The notes under the pieces were generated by a model. The model saw only the letters and a list, made by a program, of their open reading frames with translations. It made no database searches and was not told the origin of the DNA. From the NCBI GenBank assembly GCA_034429475.1, contig DAOUGD010000123.1:6934-70933 (forward strand): DNA of 64,000 nucleotides, in the 5' to 3' direction. The translations under genes were made by a program, and so were the position numbers. Source of the DNA: Anaerolineae bacterium. Its GTDB lineage: Bacteria; Chloroflexota; Anaerolineae; B4-G1; SLSP01. Positions 16,009 through 34,320 of the stretch are shown here, in pieces; position 1 is the stretch's first letter, and the number at the start of each line of letters is the position of its first letter.

Positions 16009-16264
16009 AAAATCACCTCTGATTCAAAAGCTGGCGTTTGGTTGAAAACTGATCCGTGATACGCGATGGCCTTCTCACGCATCACGCATTATAACCTAAG
16101 CGTCTGTAAAAATATCACTTCCCGCTGCGGCCGGTCTCCGACCGCGCCACCACGGGGCATTGACCTGTCCGGCCAGCCAGCCTATAATCATAGGGCTGGC
16201 GCTTACCGACCTCGTGTGCGGGTGGGCGCCGACGGGAAGCATACAGAGCAAAAGAGGTGTAAAA

Positions 16265-16837
16265 GTGAATGCGCTTTGCTGGATCACCCTGGTCGCCGAG
16301 GTGTGTGCCGCACTGGCCGTGATGGTAAGCATCCTTTTTCCGCAGCGCAGAATTTGGCCGCCCTCTCGATCTCGCTCATGGATGGGGTATGGGATGTGGG
16401 GCCTGTTCATCATCTCCGCCATAGGGGTCATCGCGCTCGGCATGAGCGATTGGGGTTCGCTGAAACTGGCGCCGTGGGTGCGCTGGCTACTGGGCGCGCC
16501 CCTGTGGTTAGGCGGCAGTGGCCTGGCTTTGTGGGCGCTGATAGTTTTGGGGGTGGCTGCTAGTTTCGGGGATACCGGAACCCTGGTGCGCCGAGGCCCC
16601 TATCGTTTTTCGCGGAACCCGCAGTATGTGGGCTTTATCGCCGGATTGCTAGGCTGGGCCTTGGTGGCCAGTTCAGCCCAAGCCCTGATAGCCGCGGTGG
16701 TGGGGGTGCTCCCCCTGGCGTTGGTCCCTTTTGCCGAGGAACCGTGGCTGTTGGCCCGGTATGGCGCAGCCTATGCCGAATACCTGCAATCCGTGGCGCG
16801 TTTTGTCCCCCTGCCCCATTGCCGGGAAGTTGCATAG
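16265..16837 (+). CDS. isoprenylcysteine carboxyl methyltransferase (ICMT) / PEMT-family membrane methyltransferase
   Basis: Motif RRGPYRFSRNPQYVG; start set at GTG 16265; track has a longer ATG 16160 version. Confidence 0.65.
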   Translation: MNALCWITLVAEVCAALAVMVSILFPQRRIWPPSRSRSWMGYGMWGLFIISAIGVIALGMSDWGSLKLAPWVRWLLGAPLWLGGSGLALWALIVLGVAASFGDTGTLVRRGPYRFSRNPQYVGFIAGLLGWALVASSAQALIAAVVGVLPLALVPFAEEPWLLARYGAAYAEYLQSVARFVPLPHCREVA

Positions 16838-18936: not shown

Positions 18937-19177
18937 CGCCCTACAAACGACGGCAAGTCCAGTCGTTTCCAGAACGGAAAGACTTCTAACCCCACCGCAG
19001 GTGCCACCCATAGGATAATCACCGTACCGTCGAACGGTGTCTGGCCAGCAGCATCTCCGCCGGGGGGATACACACGCCGCGCGTATCCGTGTCGCTCTCC
19101 GGCGTGTCCAAGCCATACGCCCGGCTGCCGGCGACAACACGGTAGATCAGGTGGGTCTCCCAAAAGGGGTCAGGCAT
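18918..19177 (-). pseudogene. nucleotidyltransferase (PF10127-like) N-terminal fragment, frameshifted and truncated
   Basis: MPDPFWETHLIYRVVAGSRAYGLDTPESDTDTRGVCIPPAEMLL then frame switches; only about 85 codons in total. Confidence 0.45.
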
Positions 19178-19403
19178 GGGCGACTCCTAATCGCACGCGG
19201 AGCAGAAAATCGTTGAGCAGGGACTTTCTATCCCGATACTGCAACCACAAGGGCACTGTTTGCCAGTCATCATACGCCGCACTCTGATCTCCAGTTGCGG
19301 TTAAGCCTTCGATTTCGCCATCGCTCATCCTGATAGTTACATCACTTCTTTAATTGGCTCGTCGCCCCTGGTCGTCCACGATGAGCTCGCCGCCTACACC
19401 GAT

Positions 19404-20633
19404 ATCAATGTCATTAAGTTAACGGGCCGACTTGTAGCACATTGAGAAGCGCTTGCGTCGCGCCCCTTTCCGGCGGGGGAACTTCCGCCCGGGGCGTACC
19501 GGTTCGGTGGTGTGAATCATAGCTTGCCAGAGTGCTTCCAACAGGTCACTGATTAGGCTACGCTGCAAGAGCAACACAACAGTGTCTTTCAAGATGGCCA
19601 AAGCATAGGCGCAGTTGACGCGATAGGCGTAGCATTTCGTTTGGCTCTGCTGCGTGACCTGCGTTTGGGCGGGCTGTGTCAAGATCACGGTGAGATTGGT
19701 GGTGAAGAGCGTGGCATAGAAGTCCTGCTGGACAGCGAGGGTGGACTTGCCCGACCAATTCTCGACCTCCACGCGGAGTTTGATGACCTTGTAGTCTTCT
19801 TCCACCGGCCAGCGCTGGTGGTAGAGTTCTTTGAAAAGGGCAAGGGGATAGGTGGCATTATCCAACACCGAGGTCGCCCCATTGTCCGAGGGGCATCCGG
19901 GCGCAGAAGTGCGCCCCGGTGCTGAGGATCAGCACGAACAACCAAAAGGCCGGATAGCCCCGATCCAAGAGCAGCAGGTCGCCGGGCTGGATATGTGCCA
20001 GGTGGTGGGCCGCGCATTCCCGTTCATCGCGTGTCTTGGGGCTGATCCAGGTGTCCAGCGTCAGTTGGTTCAACACGTCGAACAACTGCGAGACCCGCGC
20101 CAACGGTTTGTCGCCCCAGAGGCCGAAGTGCGCGATAATATCGGCGGTGACGGGTAATTCCGCCGTCGAGCCATCCATTCCCAACAACCGTCAGCCATGC
20201 CCGGTCTGGTAAGGAAAGTGCTGATAGAAATACGGTATTTGCACCGTGTTCAGTTCCACAAAGGCGCTGGCCCGCAGTTTCTGACGCGCCTGACAGAAGG
20301 CGCTCTTCGTGACGATCCGTTCTGCCACCACGGCGTGGCGGTCCAGGTTGAAGTAGGCGTCCAGTTCATCCTGGAGCGCCTGTTTGACCAGATTCACCAG
20401 GAACAGCACCACCAGCACAAACGGCAACGCTCGCTGGCGCGTGAACGCGCTCGGGGACTGGCGATGGCGCTCCATAAACGCCCTACTTCCCAAACGGCTC
20501 TGCAAGGTCGTGAGCAAATCGGCACACAAGGTTTGGGTATCTACGGACATAGTTATCCTCCTGGAATCAGCACTCATACGGAGGACATGATATCCCATTT
20601 GCATTCGTCTATCCTTAACTTAATGACATTGAT
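19404..20633 (-). mobile_element. IS4-family-like insertion sequence (1230 bp) with perfect 19-bp terminal inverted repeats ATCAATGTCATTAAGTTAA
   Basis: IR-L 19404-19422 and IR-R 20615-20633 are exact reverse complements; transposase lies between them. Confidence 0.7.
19419..20550 (-). pseudogene. DDE transposase (IS4 family, Y-x2-R-x3-E-x6-K signature YHQRWPVEEDYKVIK), inactivated
   Basis: Three collinear ORF pieces (20191..20604, 19858..20187, 19419..19868); in-frame TGA at 20191-20193 and a frameshift near 19858-19868; ATG 20550 preceded by GGAGGA. Confidence 0.7.
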
Positions 20634-20810
20634 GGCATCCTGTCTACTCAAGAGATCGCCAAGCGGATTCCGCAGCTTTCTGGTCAGCAACTCAGTAAGG
20701 AGGAATTAAGTGCCGAAGCGCTGGCCCTGGCGCAGTTCATTATTGAAGAGTTAAGGAAGGAGAAATAAAAAAATGTCCGATCTATTGTATTTAGACAATA
20801 AAATCAGACA

Positions 20811-20849
20811 TTTTTTATGTGTCGGGGCAGAGCGATTTGAACGCTCGAC
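20811..20849 (-). other. tRNA 3-prime fragment (variable region + T-arm GAGCG-TTCAAAT-CGCTC + acceptor 3-prime strand TGCCCCG-A) with no 5-prime half; putative att-site remnant
   Basis: Reverse complement reads CATTGAAGAGGTCGAGCGTTCAAATCGCTCTGCCCCGACA; no CGGGGCA partner for the acceptor stem within 100 nt. Confidence 0.5.
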
Positions 20850-20994
20850 CTCTTCAATGTCCGGGCATGTTAGCTCATCCTACATAGATTTTCCCCTATT
20901 CCCTCACCTAGTATATAACCATTCCGACGCGCCGCAACAGGCTTAGCAGGTCTGTCGCGGCGCTATTTTGTATTTCATCCTATGGAGGTTTCCA

Positions 20995-21285
20995 ATGAAT
21001 GTAACCAATCCTAATCCCCACACGCATATTGTTTTTCGCGGCGACCGCTTGCGCGCGTTGCGTCAACAACTGCATATCTCAGTGGATCGCATTGCCCGCG
21101 CTACCGAGTTGACCACTCACCACATCTATCGCCTGGAACACAACGACCGCTTCAAAGTATGAGGCATCACAATTGCCAAATTAGCCCTGGCCCTCAACAC
21201 CAGTTGTGATTACCTCCTCAATCTTACCGACGACCCGCGCCCCCACAACACTCCTATGCCCATAGAGACTACACTCGACCTATGA
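20995..21285 (+). pseudogene. XRE-family HTH regulator interrupted by an in-frame TGA (21160-21162)
   Basis: MNVTNPNPHTHIVFRGDRLRALRQQLHISVDRIARATELTTHHIYRLEHNDRFKV*GITIAKLALALNTSCDYLLNLTDD. The conserved HTH C-terminal half continues in frame after the stop. RBS GGAGG before ATG 20995. Confidence 0.55.
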
Positions 21286-21434
21286 CCCTACCATCAGCGG
21301 ACCACTCTCTATGGGATACCGCCGGTACGGCATCGCGACGAAGAAATATATCTTCTAATGAAAACTCCGCAATGCTATGAGAGAAACCCATGGCCACATC
21401 CTGCCCCTGGTCACCGCCACCGGGAGGCCTAGCC

Positions 21435-21869
21435 ATGATGCCATTCGATCTGCGTCAATACTGCGACCTGAGCGACAGTGACTTGGCAGTATTACTCAAT
21501 CCTGGCAGTGCCTCGGCAGCGCAACGCCTGGTACTTAGCCAGGAAGGATGGCTCGAATTACCCACCTTGGCCCTGACTGCCGCTGGCGCACAACTCCGGA
21601 CACGAGCGCTCCGGTTGATACAGCGCGAGGAAACCTTACCACAACCGCTAAGCCTGCCCGACTTACCACATGGTAGCCTCTCAACCCAGGTCGCTTGCCT
21701 GCGCTATGTCGCAACCCATCCGGGCGCGGCCTGGCGGTATCTGACCCAGTTGTTTGGCCGCGAGGTGGTGGAACAGTGTCATCACGCCGGTTGGTTGACC
21801 GGTGAATTACGCCGGGGTGCGCCGCAGGAATTGACGCAGTTGGGTATCCGGTACGTGCAGGGAAACTGA
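21435..21869 (+). CDS. hypothetical protein (island)
   Basis: ATG preceded by GGGAGG; protein-like composition; no recognisable motif. Confidence 0.45.
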   Translation: MMPFDLRQYCDLSDSDLAVLLNPGSASAAQRLVLSQEGWLELPTLALTAAGAQLRTRALRLIQREETLPQPLSLPDLPHGSLSTQVACLRYVATHPGAAWRYLTQLFGREVVEQCHHAGWLTGELRRGAPQELTQLGIRYVQGN

Positions 21870-21880
21870 GGAGGAGCGCT

Positions 21881-23524
21881 ATGGACACCGTCGAATCACT
21901 CAAGGATCGCCGTCGCATGTATTTGAGCGCCGCGCGGGAAAAGCTGTGCTTGTTGGCTCGCGCCGCCCTGAACGTCACATTGGACCCAATCAGGGATGTC
22001 CGCCTCATCGCCGGGCCACGAGCCGGGGCGCTACTGATTGACGCCGGGGTGGCGGGGGGCGCCCTCATGAACTATCTCCGCGCCGACGAGTGCGCGAACG
22101 CGCGCCAGATTGTGCGGTGGGAATTCACCGGGGACCCCACCGTCGGGATGGATGGAGTGTACGTGCGCCTGGAAGCCAATTGGCCCGCCGACCTGGCCGA
22201 TACCGCGATTGAACTCCGGGCCGTCAGCCGGCATCCCCTGGGTTACGGACGCTGGATCGCCGCGCAGAACGAAAACGGCGTCACTATCAACGGCATTTTC
22301 GATGACCAGACCCCCCATTGGTTGATCGGCGGCACGTCGGGGTCGGGCAAGACTACCGCGATCCTGTCGTTGGTCTACCAGTTGTCGCGCAGGGTTTCCC
22401 CGAAGACCCGCCGGGAGCGGGAACAAAAAGAACGCGACCACGAAGCGGAAATGGCTAAAAAGCACGGGCGCGCGCCCCGGGAGATTGTTCCGGAAAACCC
22501 AGATACCCGGTTAGTCCTGATTGATGGGCGCAACGGCGCCGGCCTGGCGGTGCTACAGAGGTTACCCCACCTGGTCGGCCCCCTGGCCACCGACATTGAC
22601 AGCGCCACACTGGCTCTGGCCTGGGTAGACGCGGAGATCGACCGGCGTAATCGTCTCATCGTAGCGCAGGGCGCGGCTGCGGTACGGGCGCTGCCCCGGA
22701 TTGTCGTGGTCATTGATGAATTTCAAGAGCTGTTTCAGGATCCGACCGTGCGGGAACTGGCCCGGAAGGGGTTAGCCACCGGGCGGGCCGTCCGGGTCAG
22801 CTTTGTACTGGCAACCCAAAGTCCCGCGATGGCCGCGTTCGGCGACGACACGTCGATGCGGCGGAACCTGAGTGGGCGGATCGCCTTGCGCGTTACCGAT
22901 GGTGATGCCAGTCGGGTCGTAATGGGCAACTCCGACTTCCACGCCGAACGGTTGGCGGGGCAGGGCGACTGCTACATCCTCACCCCGGAACGCACGCAGC
23001 GCGCGCAAATCTGCTACCTGGATCCGGAAGACATCGCGGAGGAACCGCAGTATGAACCAGAACTGGCCGAGTGGCCAGAACCGGCGCAAACCCTGCCTGG
23101 CCAAAGCCAGATGACCAACTACGCCTTCTCCGGGACGGAACTGGCCCACGCGCTCCACGCTGTTACGCAAGGCTGGGGGCGCAATCGGCTGGGAGATACA
23201 ATGGTTGCCGCCGGTCTGGGTCGTCCAGGGGGAGCGCGGGGGCCGCGGTTACTCAAGGTGGGACGTGAACTGCAAGACACCCTGGAAACGTTGGGGCTGA
23301 TCGTCGTAGTCGCCCCGACCACAGACTCCGACCTGGAGGCCGCAGACCCTGAGCAGGAGGCCGTAGATTCCGCGCCGGAAACCGCCAGGACCGAGCCAGT
23401 CCCGGCATTTTCCCCGACGGACGGGGAATGGGCCGAGATAGATCCTGACCGGGTCACCCCTACACCGCGCCGCGGGCGCGCCAGTGGGAAGCGCCGGGGC
23501 AATGGCAATGGGGGGCAACCGTGA
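21881..23524 (+). CDS. FtsK/SpoIIIE-family DNA translocase (TraB/TraSA-like conjugative transfer ATPase)
   Basis: Walker A GGTSGSGKTTAIL; Walker B VVVIDEFQELF; C-terminal Pro/Arg-rich tail. Confidence 0.85.
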   Translation: MDTVESLKDRRRMYLSAAREKLCLLARAALNVTLDPIRDVRLIAGPRAGALLIDAGVAGGALMNYLRADECANARQIVRWEFTGDPTVGMDGVYVRLEANWPADLADTAIELRAVSRHPLGYGRWIAAQNENGVTINGIFDDQTPHWLIGGTSGSGKTTAILSLVYQLSRRVSPKTRREREQKERDHEAEMAKKHGRAPREIVPENPDTRLVLIDGRNGAGLAVLQRLPHLVGPLATDIDSATLALAWVDAEIDRRNRLIVAQGAAAVRALPRIVVVIDEFQELFQDPTVRELARKGLATGRAVRVSFVLATQSPAMAAFGDDTSMRRNLSGRIALRVTDGDASRVVMGNSDFHAERLAGQGDCYILTPERTQRAQICYLDPEDIAEEPQYEPELAEWPEPAQTLPGQSQMTNYAFSGTELAHALHAVTQGWGRNRLGDTMVAAGLGRPGGARGPRLLKVGRELQDTLETLGLIVVVAPTTDSDLEAADPEQEAVDSAPETARTEPVPAFSPTDGEWAEIDPDRVTPTPRRGRASGKRRGNGNGGQP

Positions 23525-23775
23525 CTGTCGTTTTGGCGCTGGGATTAGCCGTAACGGCGTTTGGGTCCGGGCTGCTGCTCGCGCTGGGCGCCACCGTAGT
23601 GCTCCCCAGGACGATCAACATTCGGGAATCCCGGCACAGCCTGAGCCTGATCCTCGCCGCGATCTTCTGCGGACTGCTGTTGGGGGCGCAGGTGCGTGAC
23701 CCGGAAATCTGGGCCGTGACCGTGTTGATCTTAGGGGGCTTCTTTAGTTATTTAGAACAATATGCTCGTCATTAA
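23521..23775 (+). CDS. small membrane protein (GTG start overlapping the FtsK-like stop)
   Basis: 84 aa, two TM helices; translational coupling (ccGTGActg). Confidence 0.5.
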   Translation: MTVVLALGLAVTAFGSGLLLALGATVVLPRTINIRESRHSLSLILAAIFCGLLLGAQVRDPEIWAVTVLILGGFFSYLEQYARH

Positions 23776-23776
23776 C

Positions 23777-23874
23777 TGCCTGCCTGCCTGCCTACCTGGG
23801 GTGGCCCCGGCACGGGCGGAATTTTCCGGGCATTCCGGGGCGACGGGGGCACAGACAGGGTAGGCAGGCAGGCA
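23777..23874. repeat. long inverted repeat: 17-19-bp arms CTGCCTGCCTGCCTACCTGG / CAGGGTAGGCAGGCAGGCA enclosing about 60 bp with nested palindromes
   Basis: Arms are reverse complements (one mismatch); inner sequence has GCCCCG...CGGGGC and GGAAT...ATTCC sub-palindromes. Confidence 0.65.
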
Positions 23875-23896
23875 CAAACACTGCAAGGAGGGGTCA

Positions 23897-24382
23897 ATGA
23901 CTAAGAAAGGTAGTCCACACAAAACCGTCACAACCTACGCCACGCCCGCACCGACCGGAGATGAACTCCGCCAGCGCCTAATCCTCATCGGCGTCGGACT
24001 GGCCGGCGCGCTGACGCTCGCCCTGTTAGGGGGCATCGTCTACTGGCTCTTCACGGCCACTCTGAGTACGCTGCGCTGGTGGGCGGGATTGGCGACTGTC
24101 GGGGCCGCGCTGCTCCCCTTCCTGGGATATTTTCTGGGGACATCTACCAGCCGGGCGCATCAGGAAGGCTTGGCCGCCGGGGTACAAACTGCTCAGGATA
24201 TTATGCAGACCGGCGTCGCCACCACTATGCGGGCCGCGGCCGACACGGCGGAGGTCCGGATCACGACCGCGCACGCCTTACGCCCGCCCGCCGCTGCCGG
24301 CAAGCTGACGCTGGATGAGTTAAATCGGCTTGTCCGCACCTTGCCGTCAACCACGGCGGACGGAGAACGCTATCAGGGATAG
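23897..24382 (+). CDS. membrane protein (island; Spd-like candidate)
   Basis: MTKK start after AAGGAGGGG; two TM helices then an Ala-rich soluble part. Confidence 0.5.
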   Translation: MTKKGSPHKTVTTYATPAPTGDELRQRLILIGVGLAGALTLALLGGIVYWLFTATLSTLRWWAGLATVGAALLPFLGYFLGTSTSRAHQEGLAAGVQTAQDIMQTGVATTMRAAADTAEVRITTAHALRPPAAAGKLTLDELNRLVRTLPSTTADGERYQG

Positions 24383-24399
24383 ATCAAGGAGAAAAGACC

Positions 24400-24987
24400 A
24401 TGACTAAGAAATCGCTGATTCAGTCCATTACTTCAAGGCCGGCGTCTAGCGAGGGAGGCCGTCCTGGTGACCAAACTATGACCTGGCAGGTGTCCGCCCC
24501 CGCCGTGCTGGCCGTAGCACAACCGGCCACCGTCCCAGCTCTGACGCGCCCGGAGTTGTTGACCTGGCTGTACACGGCGCCAGCCCGCCGATCAGATACC
24601 ACGCTGGCTGCCGACCTGGATACAGGCCTGGTGACGATTCTCGTGGCGCACACTCTGCAATACCCTGTGACCTGGGCCGAGCCAATGGGCCAGGTGGGCC
24701 GCTTTGTGCAGGCCGCCTACCAGCAACGGGACTACCCCGATCCGGACTTGATCGTGGCGCTGACCACGGACGCCACAGCGTTTCAAGCCGCGATGCGCCG
24801 CTTCCAGATGGTACGTCTGAAGCCACACCGGGGTTGGGGTAAGTGGTATCAAGCCATAATGGCCGCCGCCCGCGACCTGGTCGCCCCCTTGCAGGCGCTG
24901 CGCCCCACAGCGGACGAAGCCCGGTTTGTGCTGCGGTGGGCGGCTCTGGTCGCAGCCACTGGCAGCCAGTACGGCGTGGTGGAATAG
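24400..24987 (+). CDS. hypothetical protein (island)
   Basis: MTKK start with AAGGAG RBS; protein-like composition. Confidence 0.5.
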   Translation: MTKKSLIQSITSRPASSEGGRPGDQTMTWQVSAPAVLAVAQPATVPALTRPELLTWLYTAPARRSDTTLAADLDTGLVTILVAHTLQYPVTWAEPMGQVGRFVQAAYQQRDYPDPDLIVALTTDATAFQAAMRRFQMVRLKPHRGWGKWYQAIMAAARDLVAPLQALRPTADEARFVLRWAALVAATGSQYGVVE

Positions 24988-24997
24988 GGGCGGAGCG

Positions 24998-25300
24998 ATG
25001 AAACGCATGGTGGGGATCATGGGGGCGCTGACCTGGATTGGCGTCTTCTTCGCCCTGGCGGTGGGCAACGCCGCCGGCGATGACATCGCCGCCGCGCTCA
25101 ATCGGCTGGCCGACGCCTGGCAACCCACACCTACCCCAACACCCATGCGGGTAGTGACCATGAGCGTAAGCCACGCCGCCGGCGACTCGCCGGTGCTGGT
25201 CTTTCTGGTCCTGGCCGGGCTGTTGCTCGGTGGGATCGGCCTGTGCGTGTGGCTCCGGCGGCGCGCCCACCCCCACTTACTCCCGGAGGAAACCGCGTGA
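24998..25300 (+). CDS. small secreted/membrane protein with PTPTPTP linker
   Basis: Signal-like N-terminus MKRMVGIMGALTWIGVFFALAVGNAAG and C-terminal TM. Confidence 0.5.
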   Translation: MKRMVGIMGALTWIGVFFALAVGNAAGDDIAAALNRLADAWQPTPTPTPMRVVTMSVSHAAGDSPVLVFLVLAGLLLGGIGLCVWLRRRAHPHLLPEETA

Positions 25301-25499
25301 ACGCGGCCATCGGGATTTCAATCGTCGAGGGCGCGGCGCTGTGGGATATGCCCCAGCCTGCTGCGTCACTGGCTCAAACAAGGCGTGATTCCCAGCGATT
25401 GGCTGGGGAATAAGGTTGTGTAGTTGACGCTGGCCGCACTGGTCACGCTCAGTAAATGGAAATGGTAAGGTTATTCAACCAGAAACGGAGGACGCACTG

Positions 25500-26735
25500 A
25501 TGGATGCTAATTTGGTCACGACACCGACAATGAACACCGACACCCAGCCCCAGTTCCAGGTCGTGGGCCTGGACGAAGGCGCGGGCGCCGTCAAAATCTA
25601 CACCGCATTCGGCGCAACGGAGTTTAACTCCCAGATCGCCCACAACGGGACGGACGCGCCGGGCGCGGTCGCCGGGCTGGAAACCCTGACCCCGCCCCTG
25701 CAAATCACCTTCACCGGCGGCACGTTCTACACCGGTCCCGGCGCGCACGCCTGGGGCCGCCCGGTGGAGAACCTGGACTTCGGCCGCTTCGCCGGCAGCC
25801 CGGAGATGGCGGCCATCCTCTACGGGGCCTTTACCCGCCATGTCGAAACCTATGGTACACTCGCCCCACTACGGCTCAAGGTCGGCCTGCCGCAGCAGGC
25901 GTTGGCCGGCGAGGCGGGCAAGGAAATCATCCCCGGCGTGAAAAGTTGGCTGACCGGCGCCCATCAGTGGGCGGCGCAGAACGGCCACGTCCCACCCGCG
26001 GCGCGTGCAGCGGCGCGCGAGCACCTGGAACGCTTCGCGGCAACCGCCAGCAAGGACGATCTCATTGCCCGTGCTGCGCAAGAAGGACTGACGCTGGCCC
26101 GCTCCTGGCACAAGGCCCAGATGGTGGACGCCATGCTGGACAATGCCGATCTCGTTGTCAGTTTTGGCGGCGGTACGCTCCACACGGATTACAGCCTGGA
26201 GGTGCGCGATGTGCAGGTGACCTCACAGCCGGTGGGGGCGTGGTTCGACTTCCTGTTGGACGAGGCCGGCAGTTTCCTCCCGGCGCGCAAGCCGCTGTAC
26301 GCCCAGGAAATCGGCGTCATCTCCATCGGTATGAGCACCGTGGAACTGTTGGTCGTACAGCAGGGCAAGGCCAGCCCCCGGTTCACCCGCGGCGAGACTG
26401 AAGGCGTGCAGCGACTGTTGGCCCTGGCGAATCCCCGCAATCACTACTCCCGCGGCGAGATGGACGCCCGGCTGCGCAGCGGAGCGCTCAACACCGAACT
26501 GCCCACCTTGTTGCCGATGTGGTGGCCGGACATCAACGGCCTGATCAATCAGGTATGGGAAAGCACCTGGGAGCGGTTTGGCGCAGTGATCATCGTCGGC
26601 GGTGGGGCGATCTTGTTGGGCGACTACCTGCGGCGCAAGTTCCGCGAGAAGGCCGTCATCCCAGATAGCCCCGTGCTGGCCGTGGCGCGGGGGCTGTACA
26701 AGTTCGGCGTGATGCAGACGCGGCAGGGGAAATGA
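25500..26735 (+). CDS. ParM/StbA-like actin-fold ATPase (plasmid segregation protein)
   Basis: Phosphate-1 like VVGLDEGAGAVKIY and a second phosphate loop ISIGMSTVELLVV; 411 aa. Confidence 0.6.
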   Translation: MDANLVTTPTMNTDTQPQFQVVGLDEGAGAVKIYTAFGATEFNSQIAHNGTDAPGAVAGLETLTPPLQITFTGGTFYTGPGAHAWGRPVENLDFGRFAGSPEMAAILYGAFTRHVETYGTLAPLRLKVGLPQQALAGEAGKEIIPGVKSWLTGAHQWAAQNGHVPPAARAAAREHLERFAATASKDDLIARAAQEGLTLARSWHKAQMVDAMLDNADLVVSFGGGTLHTDYSLEVRDVQVTSQPVGAWFDFLLDEAGSFLPARKPLYAQEIGVISIGMSTVELLVVQQGKASPRFTRGETEGVQRLLALANPRNHYSRGEMDARLRSGALNTELPTLLPMWWPDINGLINQVWESTWERFGAVIIVGGGAILLGDYLRRKFREKAVIPDSPVLAVARGLYKFGVMQTRQGK

Positions 26736-26740
26736 GCGTG

Positions 26741-26789
26741 AATTCTTTGACGTAAAGAATTATCGCTAAATTCTTTACGTCAAAGAATT
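26741..26789. promoter_or_regulatory. two inverted copies of a 21-bp near-palindrome AATTCTTTGACGTAAAGAATT / AATTCTTTACGTCAAAGAATT (centromere-like or operator site)
   Basis: Copies at 26741-26761 and 26769-26789 are exact reverse complements. They lie between the parM-like stop and the next small gene. Confidence 0.65.
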
Positions 26790-26809
26790 TCCGACCTTTG
26801 AGGTGCAAG

Positions 26810-27049
26810 ATGGCGCGTATTTCTAAAACTGAACGCCCCCAGCGCATCAATGTCTCTTTGTTGCTCTATCCGAGTCGGCATCAGGCCGTGATGGATTATC
26901 TGGGCCGCGCGGATGGCCTGAGCCGCGCGGCCAAAGTCATCAACGCCATCACGGTCGCCCTTACCGGCGGCGCGCTCGCCACCTCCCAGGAGGTGTCTCC
27001 GGATGAAGTCGCCACCATGTTGGCCGATATGGAAGGCTTGTTTAGTTAG
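26810..27049 (+). CDS. small protein downstream of the ParM-like gene (candidate ParR-type adaptor / DNA-binding protein)
   Basis: MARISKTERPQRINVSLLLYP... 80 aa; position analogous to parR; no motif proof. Confidence 0.45.
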   Translation: MARISKTERPQRINVSLLLYPSRHQAVMDYLGRADGLSRAAKVINAITVALTGGALATSQEVSPDEVATMLADMEGLFS

Positions 27050-27236
27050 TCTGACGGGGAGTCCCGCGTTTTCCAGGAGAACATTGATGACGCCCATTAC
27101 CTTTGCACACTACGCGGCCCTGGTCTCACCGGCCGACGCCCTGGCTGGCGTCCTCCGTCCAGGATGTCGGCCGGTGAAGCCCGCGCCGCGCCGGTGGCTG
27201 TTGTTCCCATTAATCTTTCACCAACAAGGAGAGCCG

Positions 27237-27578
27237 ATGTCAACATATCTCGATCAACTCACCCGGCGGCTGGCGGATCTATCCGCTATCAGCGCCATTC
27301 ACGGCGCAGAAAACACCGTTAGTTTCACCAGTCAGGGACAGGTCTGGCAACTCGTGGGCGACCCGGACAACGACTGTATCCACTTGCTCCAAGCGGACGG
27401 GGGCGAAAAACTGTCCTGGTCCTGGACGCAGTACGTGGCGCTGCCGGTAGATGTGCTGCTCATAGACCTGCTGCCAGCGTTGGGGTTGGCTAGTCTGACC
27501 TCTGTGCTGCAAATCGCAGACGGTCTTTTAGGTCAGCGCCGGGGGGAGCAGCGGTCGGCGCAACCCCTTTGGAGGTAG
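27237..27578 (+). CDS. hypothetical protein (island)
   Basis: ATG preceded by AAGGAGAG; the longer ORF in the track has an Arg/Pro-rich N-extension. Confidence 0.45.
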   Translation: MSTYLDQLTRRLADLSAISAIHGAENTVSFTSQGQVWQLVGDPDNDCIHLLQADGGEKLSWSWTQYVALPVDVLLIDLLPALGLASLTSVLQIADGLLGQRRGEQRSAQPLWR

Positions 27579-27585
27579 GTAACCG

Positions 27586-27981
27586 ATGCACAGTCAACCA
27601 CAGCCCATAAAAATCACCTTTACCGTGCCGCCAGAAATGGCGCGCATCTTAACGGAGCTGGTGAGTGCGCCCGCGCGCCAGCAACGCCATTTGGCCGAAG
27701 TGTTGATCGCCGAAGCCATGCAGCTCAACCAGGTCGCGGAAAAGTGCCGCGAAGCCACCGCCCCAAACAACCTGGATAACCCCCAGCAGCTAGCTTCTGT
27801 GCTCGAACAGCAGTCAGAATGGCTAACCCATTTAGCGCGCTGGCTATGGAATGTTAGTCAAGGCAGCAATGTCGCGGCTGAGGACTATCAAAACTCTGCC
27901 CCTATCCCGCTGGCAGTCAATGTGCAGCGCGAGTTAGATCGGGGACAAGCGGCGGGAGCTACCCGCGATGGCGACCAATAA
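27586..27981 (+). CDS. hypothetical protein (island), possible RHH-like N-terminus
   Basis: GGAGG RBS; IKITFTVPPEMARILTEL. Confidence 0.45.
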   Translation: MHSQPQPIKITFTVPPEMARILTELVSAPARQQRHLAEVLIAEAMQLNQVAEKCREATAPNNLDNPQQLASVLEQQSEWLTHLARWLWNVSQGSNVAAEDYQNSAPIPLAVNVQRELDRGQAAGATRDGDQ

Positions 27982-28110
27982 CCCCGCCGTAAGGCGGACC
28001 CTGGCCGCGCCGGCGGTCGCCGATGCGTAGCCGTTCCTCTCAACCGGGGGGCTACCGCGGCGCTCGGCGCTGGGCTACCTGGGGGGGCGAGTTAGGGAAA
28101 GGAACTCAGG

Positions 28111-28941
28111 ATGAGCTTTCGCTACTACGGCAGTAAGAAAAGTCTGGCCGCGTGGATTACGGAAATGTTGCCGCGCCACGTCTGCTACGTCGAACCCTAC
28201 GGCGGCAGCGCGGCGGTGTTGCTGCATCGCAATCCACCCGCGCCCCGCGAGGTGTACAACGACCTCGACGACCAGGTCGTGACGCTGTTCCGCGTGCTGC
28301 GTGAGCGTCCAGCGGAGTTGGCCGCGCAGGTTGCCTTCACCCCCTACGCCCGCCGCGAGGTGGAAACCGCCCGCCAGCCGCTGGCTCCCACCCACCCGGA
28401 CTATGACCTGGAAGTGGCCCGCCGTTTCCTGATCCGCGCCGGGCAGACCCGCGCGGGGGCCTCACGGCGGGATGTCCATTGGATCTGGCAAAAGGCAGGG
28501 AATCGGGGCGGCTACTACCCGGCGGAATGGGCCGAGTTGCCGGCGGAACTCCTGCGCATCGCCGCGCGCCTCAAGCACGTCCAGATCGAGCACACGGACG
28601 CGCTGACGGCGATTGTGCGCTACGACAGCCCGCAGACCTGCTTCTACCTCGACCCGCCGTATCTGTTTCCGCACAAGCAGCGCGCCGGGACGTACCGCTG
28701 CGAAATGACGCCGGACGATCATCGGGAACTAGCGCAGCTCCTTCACGACATCAAAGGCATGGCGCTCATCAGCGGCGTGCCGGGCGAGTACGACCAGTTG
28801 TACGGCGACTGGCGGCGCGAATGTCTACCGGCGCTCACCAGCAGTCACACGGTCACGCCGGAATGTGTGTGGCTCTCGCCGGCGGCGCAACGGTACGCCC
28901 CTCAACCGCGCCTGTGGGCCGAGGCCGGCGATGCCCTTTAA
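28111..28941 (+). CDS. DNA adenine methyltransferase, D12 class (Dam-like)
   Basis: N-terminal FRYYGSKKSLAAWI and catalytic DPPY (CFYLDPPYLFP). Confidence 0.85.
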   Translation: MSFRYYGSKKSLAAWITEMLPRHVCYVEPYGGSAAVLLHRNPPAPREVYNDLDDQVVTLFRVLRERPAELAAQVAFTPYARREVETARQPLAPTHPDYDLEVARRFLIRAGQTRAGASRRDVHWIWQKAGNRGGYYPAEWAELPAELLRIAARLKHVQIEHTDALTAIVRYDSPQTCFYLDPPYLFPHKQRAGTYRCEMTPDDHRELAQLLHDIKGMALISGVPGEYDQLYGDWRRECLPALTSSHTVTPECVWLSPAAQRYAPQPRLWAEAGDAL

Positions 28942-29245
28942 GCGTTGGCTGTATCCACGCAATTGGAAAGCGATTGCGGCGCGGATCAAGACGGCGGCGG
29001 GCTGGCGGTGTGAACAATGCGGCCATCCGCACGACCCGGTGGGGTACTATGTCCTGGCAGTGCATCACATTGATGGCGACCGGGCGAACAACGCGGACGA
29101 AAACCTGGTGGCGTTGTGCCAACGCTGTCACCTGGCGCTGCACGCGCGGAAGCTGGTCGGGCAACGGATGTTCGAGTTTGCCTGGCCCACCTGGTGGCGC
29201 AAACGCCAGCCGCCGGCGGAACACGCCGGGGAAAAACACGACTGA
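28931..29245 (+). CDS. HNH endonuclease
   Basis: HNH motif HHIDGDRANNADENLVALCQRCH plus CEQCG zinc knuckle; ATG overlaps the Dam stop by 11 nt. Confidence 0.8.
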   Translation: MPFKRWLYPRNWKAIAARIKTAAGWRCEQCGHPHDPVGYYVLAVHHIDGDRANNADENLVALCQRCHLALHARKLVGQRMFEFAWPTWWRKRQPPAEHAGEKHD

Positions 29246-29266
29246 TTTCGCACAACGGAGGAACCG

Positions 29267-29908
29267 ATGGAAGTGGATAACACATTTATTCCAGATAGAT
29301 TTGCAGATTTGATCGCTGCGGGGCTGATGTGCCCCTATTGTCATATTCCGCTGGTGGCAACTAACTTAGTTCCCCTACACAGATTAGCCATAGGAGTACA
29401 CGCGGGGCGGCCCTGGATCGGGACCACTCATACCCACGCCACTGGCGAACTGACTCACATTTACTGTGAACAGTGCGGCTACCCCGAAATCGTCTGGACA
29501 GAAGCAGAGCAGGTCGCGCTGCGCCAATACGAGATACAAGCCCTGGCTGTGTTCGAGCAGTACCCCGAACAGTTCCCGGTGTATATCTATCGCCAGGATG
29601 ATGGGTTACAGTTTAGCTTGGTTGAAACTGGCGCAAAATTACTCAAAACCATCTATCCGCTTTACCGCGTAATGAGCCGCTCAACATCTCAACCAACGCA
29701 TGTATGGGAGTCGGCGGGAAACGCATTTCACACCCCGGACGCCGCGGCGGCACAGTGTCATTCATTTGGCATTTACGAACAATGGGTCACACCCTTGCGT
29801 CTCTACACGGTGTGGCCATGGGAAGATCGGATATGGATACTACAACCGTTGCATGAAGAGGACTTGTGCAACTACCCGGAGTACCTGACGCCGCAGAGGG
29901 CAAGATAA
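29267..29908 (+). CDS. hypothetical protein with zinc-ribbon Cys pairs (CPYC...CEQC)
   Basis: GGAGG RBS; 213 aa. Confidence 0.5.
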   Translation: MEVDNTFIPDRFADLIAAGLMCPYCHIPLVATNLVPLHRLAIGVHAGRPWIGTTHTHATGELTHIYCEQCGYPEIVWTEAEQVALRQYEIQALAVFEQYPEQFPVYIYRQDDGLQFSLVETGAKLLKTIYPLYRVMSRSTSQPTHVWESAGNAFHTPDAAAAQCHSFGIYEQWVTPLRLYTVWPWEDRIWILQPLHEEDLCNYPEYLTPQRAR

Positions 29909-30949
29909 ATGATCCTGGCATTACCTATCTATACCTGGGGCGCCGCCCCGGAAAACCTGAAAACGCGCCGTCAACTGGCCGAAATGGGCTTACGGCCCGG
30001 CGGCCCGGAAGTGGCGCGCGTGGAGTGGTTCCGGCAGGGGACACCCAGGTTTGCCCGACTGTATGACGTGGCCCAGGCCGTGCCGAAGTCGCCGGCCACG
30101 TCTACGCAGTTAGCCGCACTGGCAAAAGCACGGCTGAAGCGGCAACAATGCCCGGTCTGCGGCTATGCCCTGGGACATATACCGGGTCGGCGTTTCTATC
30201 CACCCACCGATTGCCCACAATGCTGCGCCCGCCAACGCCAGGCAGACCGCGCGCGGGCGACCCAGCGCGCGCAACAGGCATTGGCGAATCCGCAAGCCGT
30301 CATCCTGGACACCGAAACGACTGACCTTGACGGCTACCTTGTCCAGATCGCCGTGTTGAGCGGGGACGGAACGGTGCTGCTGGACACGCGGCTCAACCCG
30401 GGGGCCGCCATCAGCCCGGACGCCCAGGCCATCCACGGAATTACCGCCGAGATGGTGGCAGCTGCGCCCAGGTTTCAGGACATGGAAGCCGAGCTACAAG
30501 CCCTGCTCACTGATCGGCCGGTGTGGATTTACCACGCCGATTTCGACATCGGGGTCCTGGATCGGGAAGTGGAGCGGGCACACCCCCGCGACCGCCACGC
30601 GCCGGGGGAGTGGACGCCAGCGTGGCCGAGTGCGCTGCACCACTATTGCGCGATGGAACTGTACGCGGCGTGGGTAGGCGAGTGGAGCGACTATTACCGC
30701 AACTATCGCTGGCAGCGCCTGCCGGGTGGGGATCACACGGCGCTGGGCGACTGTCAGGCGACATTGGCGGTACTCAAAGCTATGGCCACCGGCGGGAAAC
30801 CAGATGCCGGCTTTCAAACAATGGGCACTGATTGCCAATATTGCCCTACCTGCGCCCGATTTGTCTGGGTGGTGGGGTGCAACGCCGCCGGGCAATTCAT
30901 CTGCCCGGATTGTGGGGCAGTGACGCAGGAACAGGAGTTACCGTTTTGA
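29909..30949 (+). CDS. DEDDh 3-prime-5-prime exonuclease (DnaQ-like) fused to zinc-finger modules
   Basis: Exo I ILDTETTD, Exo II IYHADFDIGVLD, Exo III HTALGDCQATLAVLK; CPVCG and CPDCG zinc fingers. Confidence 0.75.
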   Translation: MILALPIYTWGAAPENLKTRRQLAEMGLRPGGPEVARVEWFRQGTPRFARLYDVAQAVPKSPATSTQLAALAKARLKRQQCPVCGYALGHIPGRRFYPPTDCPQCCARQRQADRARATQRAQQALANPQAVILDTETTDLDGYLVQIAVLSGDGTVLLDTRLNPGAAISPDAQAIHGITAEMVAAAPRFQDMEAELQALLTDRPVWIYHADFDIGVLDREVERAHPRDRHAPGEWTPAWPSALHHYCAMELYAAWVGEWSDYYRNYRWQRLPGGDHTALGDCQATLAVLKAMATGGKPDAGFQTMGTDCQYCPTCARFVWVVGCNAAGQFICPDCGAVTQEQELPF

Positions 30950-31383
30950 TGGACGAGGTCTGGCCTGGCGGGCGCGCTGGCGATCCGCGCGCTCTGGCGT
31001 TGTACCGGCGGCATTACTCGTGCTATCAGTATCGGGACGGCCGCCGCCCTACGCGCTTTGCCGGACCAGGGGACCGCCTGGTGCTGCTCACACCGGAATG
31101 CAATGCCCTGTTGGTATGGCGCAAATTCCGCGATGCCCGCGGGCAGGTCGGCGTGACCTGCGCCGTGTTCCGCAACGCAGGGCCGCGGTTGTCCCGCGAT
31201 TTGCTGCGCGCCGGGATGGCGCGGGTCTGGACGCGCTGGCCAGGCGCACGGTTATATACCTGCGTCAACCCATACCGGATTCGCAGCACCAATCCGGGCT
31301 ACTGTTTTCGAATGGCGGGATGGCGCAAATGCGGGCGCACGCAGGCGCGGCGACTGGTGATTTTGGAGGCATATCCAGATTGA
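30949..31383 (+). CDS. conserved hypothetical plasmid/phage protein
   Basis: ATG overlaps the upstream stop (TGATGG); ALYRRHYSCYQY...NPGYCFRMAGW. Confidence 0.5.
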   Translation: MDEVWPGGRAGDPRALALYRRHYSCYQYRDGRRPTRFAGPGDRLVLLTPECNALLVWRKFRDARGQVGVTCAVFRNAGPRLSRDLLRAGMARVWTRWPGARLYTCVNPYRIRSTNPGYCFRMAGWRKCGRTQARRLVILEAYPD

Positions 31384-31411
31384 GAGTAATGCTGTGAAAC
31401 AAGGACGAGCA

Positions 31412-31783
31412 ATGACCACCAACTCAGACTTCAAAGCCTGGTTATTAACCCAAATCCAGCCGCGTGGTTGGCGACTGGCCGACCTGGCGCGGCACAGTGG
31501 AGTACGCTACACTACCCTCAACCGTATCTTCAGTGGCACGCGGGGCATCGGCCCGGATGTCTGCCGGGCATTGGCACACGCCCTCGGGCTGCCCGCCGAA
31601 ATGGTATTCCGGCAAGCCGGGTTACTCCCGGCGGCGCCCGATCTGACCGCCATCCCGGAACTGCTGGCTGTGGCCCTGGCTATGCTCACCGCGCTGCCGC
31701 CATCCGAGCAGCAATTGATCGGCGAGTTCATTCAATGGCGCTACACCCGCCAGCCATTGGAAAACGCACAGGGGAAACGATGA
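31412..31783 (+). CDS. XRE-family HTH transcriptional regulator (repressor-like)
   Basis: LADLARHSGVRYTTLNRIFSGTRGIGPDVCRALAHALG. Confidence 0.6.
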   Translation: MTTNSDFKAWLLTQIQPRGWRLADLARHSGVRYTTLNRIFSGTRGIGPDVCRALAHALGLPAEMVFRQAGLLPAAPDLTAIPELLAVALAMLTALPPSEQQLIGEFIQWRYTRQPLENAQGKR

Positions 31784-32184
31784 CTGAGAGCCAGGTAGAT
31801 TTCACCGAATTGTCGCATGGCGCGCAACGCCGGATCATGCGCCGCCCCACTGTAGCAGTATTGGCACGGGTCAGTAGGGGCCGGGGCTGGAGCTTGATAT
31901 GGCCGCACAATGCGGCTCACCGGGAAGCATTGCTCATGCAAGGCTACCATCCCATTGGCAATATCCCGGATAAAGCGACGTGGTCCGCGCAACCCCCGCC
32001 CCAGTACGTGGTGCAGTGCGGACGCTGGGGCGTGCAGGTACACGCTGACGGGACGTATACCCTGCGCCGTACGGACTGCCCGATCACCCTGCGACTGACA
32101 GGGCCAGATTTGACCGACGCCACGAACGCGCTGGTGCAGGTCGAGGTTGCCCGCCAACCGGTATTACGGTCCGTTTCAGAATGA
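31780..32184 (+). CDS. hypothetical protein (island)
   Basis: ATG overlaps the upstream stop; the 5-prime part of track ORF 31468..32184 is an out-of-frame overlap. Confidence 0.45.
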   Translation: MTESQVDFTELSHGAQRRIMRRPTVAVLARVSRGRGWSLIWPHNAAHREALLMQGYHPIGNIPDKATWSAQPPPQYVVQCGRWGVQVHADGTYTLRRTDCPITLRLTGPDLTDATNALVQVEVARQPVLRSVSE

Positions 32185-32247
32185 GGCTGGAAAGCATGGC
32201 ACTTATGGTGGGAAATCTTATCAATAGCGTAGGAGTCGTTATACATC

Positions 32248-32592
32248 ATGCGGAATTTGTCTACATGGCTACTGGAGCAGCTGGAACAGCGGCGCTGGGA
32301 TGTTGGCGAATTGGCGCGGCGCAGCTACCTATCGGAACAAACAATTTACTCGCTGCTCAACCCCAAGACCCCCAACGTCAGATCGGATACCCTGCTCAAA
32401 CTGATCCGCACCCTCAAAATTTCGTTAGTCACCTTTGCGGTGCAGCTTAGCGGAATGCCCGAATATCGCCAGCCCGAAACGCTGGAAATCGCCGATCTGT
32501 GCGATTTGTTGGGGGATGACGAACGGCGCGTCATTCTGGGTATCGTACGCTCACTATTCTCTGAGGCGAAAGATGATCCAGACGAGATATGA
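32248..32592 (+). CDS. XRE-family HTH transcriptional regulator
   Basis: VGELARRSYLSEQTIYSLLNPKTPNVRSDTLLKLIRTLKISLVTF. Confidence 0.55.
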   Translation: MRNLSTWLLEQLEQRRWDVGELARRSYLSEQTIYSLLNPKTPNVRSDTLLKLIRTLKISLVTFAVQLSGMPEYRQPETLEIADLCDLLGDDERRVILGIVRSLFSEAKDDPDEI

Positions 32593-32814
32593 GCAGCGTG
32601 GGACAGCCGGCCAGCGGAGACTGGCCGGTAGAAATCCCGACCACGCACTGGGCGCGGTGGCTGGAACAGGCGCGGCAGGTATAACAGCCGCTACGCCCGG
32701 TTGAAAATCGGGCCGACGGCCCAAGCCTCGTTCATCGTGACCGTGCAGTTAACGCTAGACGAGTTGGGTGAGATTCTGGCCAGGGCAATACGCAATGGAG
32801 ATAGGGTGGTGAAA

Positions 32815-33663
32815 ATGGAAACGAAAGCCTTCGATGGCGCCCGCGTGTGGCAAGCGGCGCTGGGGGAACTGCAATTGCAGATGACCAGCGCCACCTATCA
32901 TACGTGGCTGAGTGATACGCGCTGGGTGGCGACGGATACCGACAGTGAGACACTGATCATCGCGGTGAAGAATGGCTATGCCGTGGAGTGGCTCTCCAAC
33001 CGGCTGTACCCGGTCGTCGAGCGCACCCTCAAGCGCATCACTGGCAACGGTTGGGCAGCGCAGTTCGTTGTTCAGGAGCCTACCCCCATCCAGCGCCCGG
33101 AGTGGTTGGCGACTGAAGTCGCATGGCGCGCCCCGGACTTTGATCCGAGCGACCCCAAGAAAGTGGCCGGGTGGGTACCGGTGCCGGAGTACGGGCAACT
33201 GTTCTGGGCGCCCTTGTTGGGGCCGATTGCCTGGCGGGTGTGGGAGATCGTGCGGCGTACCGACCATCAGGGCGCACCTCACGATTGGACACCGCGTGTG
33301 CGTTACAGCGCACCGGAACTGGCCCGGCTCGTGCCGTGCGGCAAGCAGGCCTTGACCGGGCGCAACCGGCAGTGTGATCCCGATACCCCTGGGGCGCAAG
33401 AAATGACGCTGACGCCACTGGGCCAGGCCGCCATGACGACTTGGGCGCGGCACAACCCTGGTGCGTTTGACCGGTTGCAGCAGTATGATTTGGCCGAGAT
33501 CACTGTCAGTGGCAGTGGCCGGCGCCAGGTCTATACGCTGAGTGTGCGTTGGCGGTTGCCATTGCTACACCCCACCGAGGTCGCGGAACTCAGCGCTGAG
33601 CTACAAATCCGCCATGACCAGTGGGTACTGGAACACGGCATGGATCCGGAGTTGTGGGCATAA
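32815..33663 (+). CDS. putative replication initiator with DnaA N-terminal-like domain
   Basis: ARVWQAALGELQLQMTSATYHTWLSDTRWVATDTDSETLIIAVKNGYAVEWLSNRLYPVVERTL resembles the DnaA_N fold pattern; followed immediately by iterons. Confidence 0.5.
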   Translation: METKAFDGARVWQAALGELQLQMTSATYHTWLSDTRWVATDTDSETLIIAVKNGYAVEWLSNRLYPVVERTLKRITGNGWAAQFVVQEPTPIQRPEWLATEVAWRAPDFDPSDPKKVAGWVPVPEYGQLFWAPLLGPIAWRVWEIVRRTDHQGAPHDWTPRVRYSAPELARLVPCGKQALTGRNRQCDPDTPGAQEMTLTPLGQAAMTTWARHNPGAFDRLQQYDLAEITVSGSGRRQVYTLSVRWRLPLLHPTEVAELSAELQIRHDQWVLEHGMDPELWA

Positions 33664-34207
33664 AACCACGATACGGTGCAAATGCACCGAATATATGATG
33701 CAAATGCACCGATAATGTAACGAGCAGGTGATTGCGTCCAGAGATCAGTACAGGAAGATTGCAGGAAGCGAGTTATGTTCACTCTGTCAGTGACGTGCGC
33801 CAATCCTACAGATTTGGGAAATAGCGCGGCGTTGATTGTGGTCTGTCTCCATAACCAAGGTCTCGCGTGCCGCTGGAACCCGCGAAGCCCGGTTGCCGGG
33901 GGCAACTTGCGGTCAGACAGTTTTACGTTCTGTTTGCCGGATATGGTAAAGGTGGGCGCCGAAACCGCCGATCAACTACGCCACCTTACCTGGAATTTAC
34001 ATAACACGGCTGAGATGATAGACACCGAAATTGCGGCATTTGAGCATGGCTGCCACTCCGCGACCACCACTGTCCGGTGGAATGGGATCGTCCGGAGGCC
34101 GATCAATCCCCGTTTTCGCTGCAAATGCACCGAATATCCGATGCAAATGCACCGATAATGATGCAGCAAACTGTCTAAAGAGTAATATCGCACACAAAAA
34201 ATTACTC

Positions 34208-34244
34208 GCCACCGTCCCCCAGGAGCACTCCTGGGGGCGGTGGC
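34208..34244. other. strong hairpin: GCCACCGTCCCCCAGGA-GCAC-TCCTGGGGGCGGTGGC, followed by CCTTTTAAAGG
   Basis: 16-bp stem with one bulge; within the iteron region. Confidence 0.6.
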
Positions 34245-34320
34245 CTTTTAAAGGGGTTGCCAGAGGCTGGAAAACCAGGCTACGGTCCCCGGGGCATAGC
34301 GGGGCCAGCCGCGCGATTTA

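Follow-up and report, generated by a model that had tools for sequence, protein, structure and literature searches.

The window, by which we mean the whole stretch of 64,000 nucleotides analyzed here, carries on its minus strand an orphan piece of a proline tRNA gene that is probably the fossil of an internal joint between mobile elements. The piece is a genuine 3' fragment of tRNA-Pro(GGG) and stands between a plasmid-like element, here called element A, on its right and an arm with the remnant of a tyrosine integrase gene on its left. The whole would be a dead joint of a tandem array, or of an accretion product, formed by tyrosine-integrase elements that target tRNA-Pro(GGG). This reading builds on what is seen directly in the DNA, namely the identity of the fragment, the breakpoints at both of its ends, the integrase remnant, the insertion sequence (IS) next to it and, in a sister strain, a different flank at the core.

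The fragment, listed here as the attachment-site core (20820-20857, minus strand), is identical at 38 of 38 nt to the 3' part of tRNA-Pro(GGG) in related assemblies of Anaerolineae and Chloroflexota. The block consists of 36 nt of the tRNA, from anticodon-loop position 38 to the discriminator A73, followed by CA, and comprises nt 38, TGAAG as the 3' strand of the anticodon stem, AGGTC as the variable loop, the T arm, and the acceptor's 3' strand with the discriminator A. Over 20811-20860 the minus strand reads ...GGACATTGAAGAGGTCGAGCGTTCAAATCGCTCTGCCCCGACACATAAAAAA. The 31-mer GGTCGAGCG...CCCCGACA occurs a single time in the window (20820-20850, minus strand) and has zero matches in shuffled versions of the window. 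The parent tRNA was found by scanning public collections for the 25-mer GAGCGTTCAAATCGCTCTGCCCCGA. Carriers of the 25-mer with an intact tRNA-Pro(GGG) were the metagenome contig L004, the Chloroflexota MAG L007 (JAKQHY010000191.1) and the Anaerolineae MAG L008. An intact tRNA-Pro(GGG) with an identical 3' part is present in these three and in L016, and the block is also identical in L021-L025. The CCA end is unencoded in the intact tRNA-Pro(GGG) genes as well. An archaeal tRNA-Tyr that also matched the 25-mer was taken as a chance match.

Regarding the missing remainder of the gene, ARAGORN reported no tRNA gene in the 64-kb window, Rfam gave nothing at gathering thresholds, and the region 20300-21300 gave no tRNA match at E<=10. 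Sub-threshold Rfam matches (mir-190, Plastid-ycf2 and others) were set aside as mere reflections of the T arm and of the hairpin described below. The best match in the window to the 5' half of tRNA-Pro (40 nt) had 15 mismatches, which is the chance level. The window contains neither a second copy of the core nor a copy of the flank that replaces the integrase arm in the sister strain. The search for an intact tRNA was extended by 9 kb past the right end of the window using the JGI contig Ga0226655_10000152 (107,317 bp, reversed), which includes the window, and none was found between 20.8 kb and window coordinate 73,248.

An earlier interpretation of this DNA, made from the letters alone and hereafter called the sequence-only reading, had recognized the fragment and is upheld in most of its description. 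Its quotation of the minus-strand letters agrees with ours, and its statements that the fragment is an orphan lacking its 5' half and that the window holds no intact tRNA were confirmed by the searches just described. It had named two findings that would speak against it, a complete tRNA overlapping the site and a 3' segment matching no tRNA of the genome; the searches returned nothing of the first kind, and as to the second, the 38/38 match to related assemblies identifies the parent that it had left unnamed as tRNA-Pro(GGG). Its description of a T arm plus acceptor strand holds in that the 3' segment is canonical, but the real block is slightly longer on the 5' side.

Left of the core lies an AT-rich hairpin (20768-20816; about 21 bp) with an A run on one side and a T run on the other, which was recognized by its fold and by its retention in relatives. 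The fold of the 103-nt stretch holding it has an energy of -32.3 kcal/mol (z = -6.0). A simple terminator scan overlooks the hairpin because it contains few G-C pairs; it is likely a bidirectional terminator for the restored tRNA gene and a convergent integrase gene. It recurs behind the intact tRNA-Pro of L004, L007 and L016, and also in L027, where it separates the core from an integrase gene whose product is only 65% identical. The hairpin adjoins the 3' remnant of a tyrosine integrase gene (20634-20768, plus strand), identified by tblastn and translation, which comprises 44 codons (GILSTQEIAKRIPQLSGQQLSKEELSAEALALAQFIIEELRKEK) and a stop. Using residues 333-380 of the integrase of L007 as the query, tblastn matched window positions 20622-20765. 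The full-length relatives P0001, which contains the Pfam domain Phage_integrase, and P0129 read ...TTDSIY/GVLSAQEIAKR... (the slash marks the breakpoint in the window), and the window remnant starts right after the position of the catalytic Tyr. A full-length copy of the window-type integrase variant was not found in the protein collection. Altogether, 231 nt comprising the core, the hairpin and the integrase 3' end (20627/20628-20857) match the DNA at the intact tRNA-Pro of L004, L007 and L016 with 95-96% identity.

The gene is cut directly after the codon aligned with the catalytic Tyr (...SIY/GVLS in P0001 and P0129) by an IS4-like insertion sequence of 1230 bp (19404-20633, minus strand), whose ends are inverted repeats of 19 nt without a mismatch (19404-19422 and 20615-20633). 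The transposase is spread over three ORFs (20191-20604, 19858-20187 and 19419-19868) and is probably defective. The Pfam matches of the IS are weak and below cutoff (DDE_Tnp_1, 3.5e-3; Nterm_IS4, 2.2e-3), and no clear target duplication is visible. On its left follows a breakpoint zone of non-integrase debris (18939-19403), delimited by comparison with the sister strain, with which homology ends at 18938; it includes a 52-aa fragment of an RlaP-type nucleotidyltransferase gene on the minus strand. As this truncated RlaP-type gene stands on the left flank of the IS in place of any continuation of the integrase, the IS is tied to a deletion or rearrangement. The sequence-only reading had correctly noted an IS end nearby, the right inverted repeat stopping at 20633, 186 nt from the fragment; it had missed that the IS is no incidental neighbor, being inserted in the integrase gene. 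Since the arm is retained in L027 next to a 65% identical integrase and different cargo, the hairpin and the integrase arm are element DNA and not host DNA. By this comparison the left flank is recognizable as the integrase-proximal arm of an integrative element, not as native chromosome.

Right of the core, gene content delimits the plasmid-like integrative element A (20858-34700, plus strand; about 13.8-14 kb, the right limit being approximate). A mobile element on this side had been foretold from the orientation of the fragment. All genes of element A, from 20858 to about 34.7 kb, are on the plus strand. They encode, in this order, an XRE-type HTH protein, a 144-aa ORF, an FtsK/SpoIIIE protein of 547 aa, several ORFs lacking matches, a ParM-like protein of 411 aa, a Dam-type methyltransferase, an HNH protein, an RNase T-type exonuclease, two HTH proteins and a DnaA_N protein of 320 aa. 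The first gene beside the core, the XRE-type HTH regulator (20995-21285, plus strand; Pfam HTH_25, HTH_19 and HTH_31), is a pseudogene in which a TGG-to-TGA change at 21160-21162 turns W56 into a stop; the sister strain encodes an intact protein of 96 aa (L005, 5686-5976). The DNA translocase of the FtsK/SpoIIIE family (21881-23524, plus strand; Pfam FtsK_SpoIIIE 2.2e-15, phrog_1358 8.7e-31, FtsK motor domain in the PDB 1e-16) is a candidate for the transfer protein of element A. The ParM/actin-like partition protein (25500-26735, plus strand) matches phrog_691 'partition protein' (2.6e-23), and weakly the Pfam family MreB-like_C; its match to the NCBIfam ParM model (3e-10) is below the curated cutoff. 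The DnaA_N-domain protein (32701-33663, plus strand; Pfam DnaA_N 1.4e-7, N-terminal part of the NCBIfam DnaA model 3e-6) is the candidate replication initiator, hereafter Rep. Iteron-like repeats of the form GATGCAAATGCACCGA(A/T)AAT at 33674-34402 constitute a candidate origin of element A; the copies at 33674-33717 and 34117-34160 are direct, the one at 34375-34402 is inverted. The repeats flank a 127-aa ORF just 3' of the DnaA_N gene, and the sister strain has a 200-bp deletion in that ORF (33782-33982).

Among all ORFs between 20.8 and 73 kb, none matched a recombinase or Phage_integrase, and element A encodes no ATPase of VirB4 size. An interpretation of element A as a prophage was rejected: capsid, portal and tail matches were absent, and a 'terminase' match reflects the FtsK-like ATPase fold only. 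In the viral collections the core was absent, FtsK had no relative, and Rep had just two distant relatives, both without tRNAs. The plasmid collection contained only remote homologs of FtsK (25-31% identity). Past element A follow the genes of a small membrane protein and an acyltransferase, along with hybrid histidine kinase genes and other accessory genes.

The sister strain is represented by the contigs L005 and L019 from sample Ga0116144, which overlap by 61 nt. It is 97-98% identical to the window over element A and the genes to its right, and the right-hand junction is common to both. In L005 the end of element A and the core are followed by a different terminator and an McrBC defense cassette, with no integrase arm. 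The divergence between window and sister strain starts exactly after ...CCCCGACA at the core edge. At the other edge, the arm of element A is exchanged for the 5' half of the tRNA exactly at T38, and this 5' breakpoint is at the identical nucleotide in the two strains, which differ by 2-3%. As the two breakpoints match both ends of the block identical to the tRNA, they argue for site-specific recombination at an att core and against random deletion. The core is thus characterized, from the alignment of its flanks, as the joint of a site-specific recombination. The arrangement of the window was seen in at least nine long contigs from different samples and in the MAG GCA_964465495.1. In addition, the contig L003 from an unrelated run (SRR21710570) extends from the IS through the integrase remnant and the core to FtsK in one piece and crosses the core without a graph branch.

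Some Logan short-read contigs (L002, which starts at window position 20828, L026 and L027) stop exactly 30 nt into the core from either side. Ends at this distance would be expected from a branch of the 31-mer graph caused by other core-bearing sequences in those samples.

The flank of the core in L005 was also considered as the conserved native neighbor of tRNA-Pro, which seems doubtful: the McrB homolog in a more distant genome does not adjoin a tRNA, and the sequence next to the core, here called 'flank93', is a repeat that brackets the McrBC cassette. Copies of this repeat of about 90 nt (...GAAGCAATAAATAGCGCA...TTTGCGC...GTTTGAG...) are found at L005 6221-6310, L032 4535-4624 and L016/L021 5696-5788. 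Those on either side of the McrBC cassette are direct repeats with 89% identity, and a copy with 77% identity is located at an intact tRNA-Pro locus between the integrase module and the Fic-type defense genes. The repeat may mark cassette boundaries within a defense island.

The intact loci of the relatives (L007/L021, L016 and L022-L025) have a common organization, in which a lycopene cyclase gene is followed by tRNA-Pro, the hairpin and a convergent gene for an integrase of 375-380 aa. Beyond the integrase gene lie a 153-aa gene, HTH genes, a 442-aa gene and defense genes (Fic and others). The HTH regulators of this integrase-proximal module and of element A are paralogous, with 43% identity. 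A second copy of the core was not present within 10 kb downstream of the integrase gene in L016, L021 or L027. A degenerate attR candidate downstream of the integrase gene in L016 ('ATAGCTCCGCCCCG') was discarded, as its score was no better than that of shuffled sequence. In L021, the part beyond the integrase module (1-5700, JAKQHY010000191.1) has a G+C content of 40-46%, compared with about 61% for the chromosome; it is a low-GC defense island with Fic, HATPase and Prok-E2/ThiF/JAB genes, and a distal att copy was not detected within 10 kb.

The MAG GCA_035340735.1 of the sister strain includes the chromosomal GNAT/CMD contig L028 and the contig L024 with lycopene cyclase, tRNA-Pro and integrase. 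The proteins of element A appear to belong to this MAG, too, as its accession range brackets them. In the bin of the sister strain, an integrase-bearing unit accordingly occupies the intact tRNA-Pro(GGG), which lies beside lycopene cyclase, and the orphan core with element A would be elsewhere. Among the 120 integrase clusters of this family that were listed (of 148 matches), no longest contig equals the 107-kb contig in size, which argues against a close integrase homolog anywhere on the 107 kb.

The probable reading of the site as the joint of an array or accretion product implies the following course. [quoted passage not shown] The 5' side of the core, on the right in the window, would be the end of element A, and the 3' side, on the left, the integrase-proximal arm of a second unit; the layout of A arm, core and integrase arm would stem from two units that were arranged head to tail at one tRNA site. 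Inactivation would be due to the IS4-like element landing directly after the catalytic Tyr codon of the integrase gene, the DNA upstream of the integrase remnant would have been exchanged for unrelated DNA, and the HTH regulator of element A would have gained its nonsense mutation, leaving the remainder as a fossil. We infer this order of events, and the catalysis of the recombination at the core by this integrase family, from the sequence comparisons. An att core between the distal arm of element A and an integrase-proximal arm is present in the window, the former arm occurring also in L005 and the latter in L004, L007, L016 and L027. The array or accretion joint is favored because element A and the integrase-proximal module have separate, paralogous HTH regulators and because both sides of the joint are decayed. 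As for the anchoring of such an array, there is no second core in the window or within 10 kb of the integrase in L016, L021 and L027, and no tRNA at the Rep end of element A. This counts against the array: at the Rep-side end of element A it would need an intact tRNA-Pro, usually accompanied by an integrase, and the window and the sister strain both lack these there; element A runs into the membrane-protein, acyltransferase and histidine kinase genes instead. A further deletion or rearrangement in the common ancestor has to be assumed, or else an 'island' of more than 80 kb. Moreover, complete and bounded units of this integrase-element family were not seen, as the reference loci have no second core within 10 kb.

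The joint might instead be the attP of one large composite element or episome (the contig of at least 107 kb carries Rep, iterons and ParM), which would be plasmid-like or excised and unable to integrate any more, the IS having destroyed its integrase. We regard this as a serious rival to the array joint, albeit an unlikely one. The same element would be integrated in the sister strain, attL being represented by lycopene cyclase-tRNA-Pro-integrase and attR by the A arm, the core and the McrBC flank. The succession of integrase, core and first element gene is the exact layout of an attP, and no extra deletion is needed to explain why the tRNA 5' half and the integrase are absent at the Rep side of element A in both strains. 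In agreement with this, GCA_035340735.1 holds the attL-type contig L024 and its accession ranges imply contigs of the A/attR type, the protein collection is devoid of the full-length window-type integrase, and genes for replication and partition are present in the window, where no clear core housekeeping gene was seen. However, the integrase-proximal genes of the integrated form (153-aa, HTH and 442-aa genes, followed by Fic and others) bear no relation to the DNA left of the IS, so that a rearrangement is needed in this case, too. The paralogous HTH regulators suggest two related units instead of one, there are no signs of circularity or of a difference in coverage, and the element would need to be very large.

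According to the sequence-only reading, the fragment is the distal scar (attR) of one element that lies to the right, with native chromosome on the left and an intact tRNA at the far right end. The core is or once was an attachment site, as that reading proposed, but it probably forms an internal joint, and in the simple form given we consider the distal-scar model very improbable. The model correctly predicts how the fragment is oriented with respect to element A, the sister strain has an attR-like succession of A arm, core and other flank, and the contig continues for 36 kb past the window, 9 kb of which were examined. Nevertheless, the predicted intact tRNA did not appear up to 73,248, and neither an integrase nor any other recombinase gene was found in the same interval. 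The left flank, which would have to lie outside the island, consists of the hairpin and the integrase remnant; this arm is found beside the intact tRNA-Pro elsewhere, downstream of it in conspecific genomes, and is kept across integrases of 65% identity. That no longest contig among the listed integrase-family clusters has the size of the 107-kb contig also speaks against the model. Scarcely credible, finally, is an origin of the fragment that involves no att site, either as a tRNA-Pro pseudogene whose 5' half was lost through a deletion, random or caused by an IS, or as a chimera of metagenome assembly in which a shared tRNA sequence formed the joint. An IS and several truncated genes do occur nearby, the data are metagenome assemblies, and the short-read contig L002 breaks within the core. 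Yet the IS is on the 3' side of the fragment, whereas it is the 5' side that is missing, and the 5' breakpoint shared by the two strains is in the anticodon loop, a classic sublocation of crossovers (PMC4383910). A chimeric joint is opposed by the recurrence of the arrangement across at least nine long contigs of separate samples and an NCBI MAG, and by L003, which spans the joint.

The tDNA islands cataloged by Islander are characterized by a tyrosine integrase, a regenerated tRNA gene and a displaced 3' fragment, and Islander recognizes both tandem arrays at tDNAs and a crossover class centered on the anticodon, class 'A' (PMC4383910). The site in the window resembles these islands in that its 3' fragment is identical to the cognate tRNA, a tyrosine integrase is located beside the intact tDNA in related genomes and the 3' end is supplied by the element. 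The identity sets in with tRNA nucleotide 38, in the 3' part of the anticodon loop, as in class 'A' (PMC4383910). Unlike in these islands, an intact cognate tDNA or integrase is absent from the fragment up to 73 kb, and all that there is of an integrase, a stump of 44 codons, stands on its 'wrong' side. Given its filters (integrase within the interval, tDNA on the same replicon), Islander would call no island here. In function the core would be a standard tDNA attachment site of the anticodon-centered class.

Regarding gene content, the AICEs (actinomycete integrative and conjugative elements) are among the closest known systems. These elements are plasmid-like and 10-25 kb in size, with a replication module, a single transfer protein with an FtsK/SpoIIIE domain and HTH regulators (PMC2440964); element A shares these traits, its translocase being a candidate for the transfer protein. 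Integration at tRNA 3' ends, a short att copy left between units by tandem insertion and the frequency of decayed remnants are further likenesses (PMC2440964): pSAM2 targets tRNA-Pro, and the tandem AICEs of S. avermitilis have a 44-bp att site between units (PMC2440964). In contrast, the host of element A is an uncultured member of the Anaerolineae (Chloroflexota) and not an actinomycete. The Rep of element A matches only DnaA_N, with no detected relation to RepSA, RepAM or prim-pol. Element A also differs in having a ParM-like partition gene and no int/xis inside, and neither a Nudix/Pif protein nor a Kor protein of the GntR type was detected in it; the integrase beside it is incomplete and could be part of a different unit. 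By analogy, element A is to be regarded as AICE-like in function, not as a member of the AICE family. It is conceivable, though doubtful, that element A represents a counterpart of the AICEs in filamentous Anaerolineae, that is, a self-replicating and partitioned element with transfer of double-stranded DNA by a translocase of the FtsK/TraB type and docking at tRNA-Pro by way of this core. If so, the integrase would have been active recently in a natural population, as recorded by flanks of the core that differ between two co-occurring strains, and the element of the window strain, or a much larger episome, would have been locked by the IS at the catalytic tyrosine of the integrase.

Two further systems invite comparison. 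A published account of Dehalococcoides (PMC3146451) describes tandem site-specific islands at the tmRNA gene ssrA in this genus of the Chloroflexota. These islands share with the present site the phylum, the repeated insertion at one small-RNA gene and the direct repeats of its 3' end between units, and they differ in the target (ssrA versus tRNA-Pro) as well as in integrase and cargo. Also known are the accretion of elements and, beside ICEs or IMEs, cis-mobilizable elements without an integrase (CIMEs; PMC5704250). Element A is like a CIME or accretion product in having an att core and no integrase of its own and in adjoining an integrase-bearing unit; however, a CIME has two bounding att sites (PMC5704250), and only one was found for element A.

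The site illustrates that an orphan tDNA fragment can be an internal joint, since the flank that looks like host DNA is here the stump of an integrase; island boundaries called from the orientation of the fragment alone would therefore be wrong. It also points to tRNA-Pro(GGG) as an integration hot spot in uncultured Anaerolineae, used by an integrase family with variable defense cargo and by a plasmid-like element with FtsK, ParM and Rep. The mobile elements of the Chloroflexota are poorly described. The current understanding of site-specific integration is not challenged by these findings, the joint being ordinary debris of mobile elements.

Several repeats and paralogous genes were observed elsewhere in the window. 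Three copies of a 30-39 nt repeat (ACAGGTTCA...GGTTAGAAAAACAGGTTCA) at 47326-47433, between a 163-aa ORF and a divergent 180-aa ORF/SSB gene (47925-48383), might mark a second mobile module, as its origin or as a regulatory region. Two pairs of repeats, 50272-50571/51299-51598 (300 nt, 81% identity) and 50995-51113/51940-52058 (119 nt, 71% identity), have a spacing of 945-1027 nt and, as sequence repeats, indicate a tandem duplication of a gene pair without family matches. An ORF of 1148 aa (39819-43265) is composed of several internal repeat families with units of 52-124 nt, for which Pfam gave a faint match to DUF1936 only; it is followed by a gene for a CLIPPER/PPC-domain protein. Four paralogous methyltransferases of the PEMT/ICMT family are encoded at 16160-16837, 56495-57187, 62099-62662 and 62688-63248, the last two of which form an adjacent pair with 71% identity over 103 nt.
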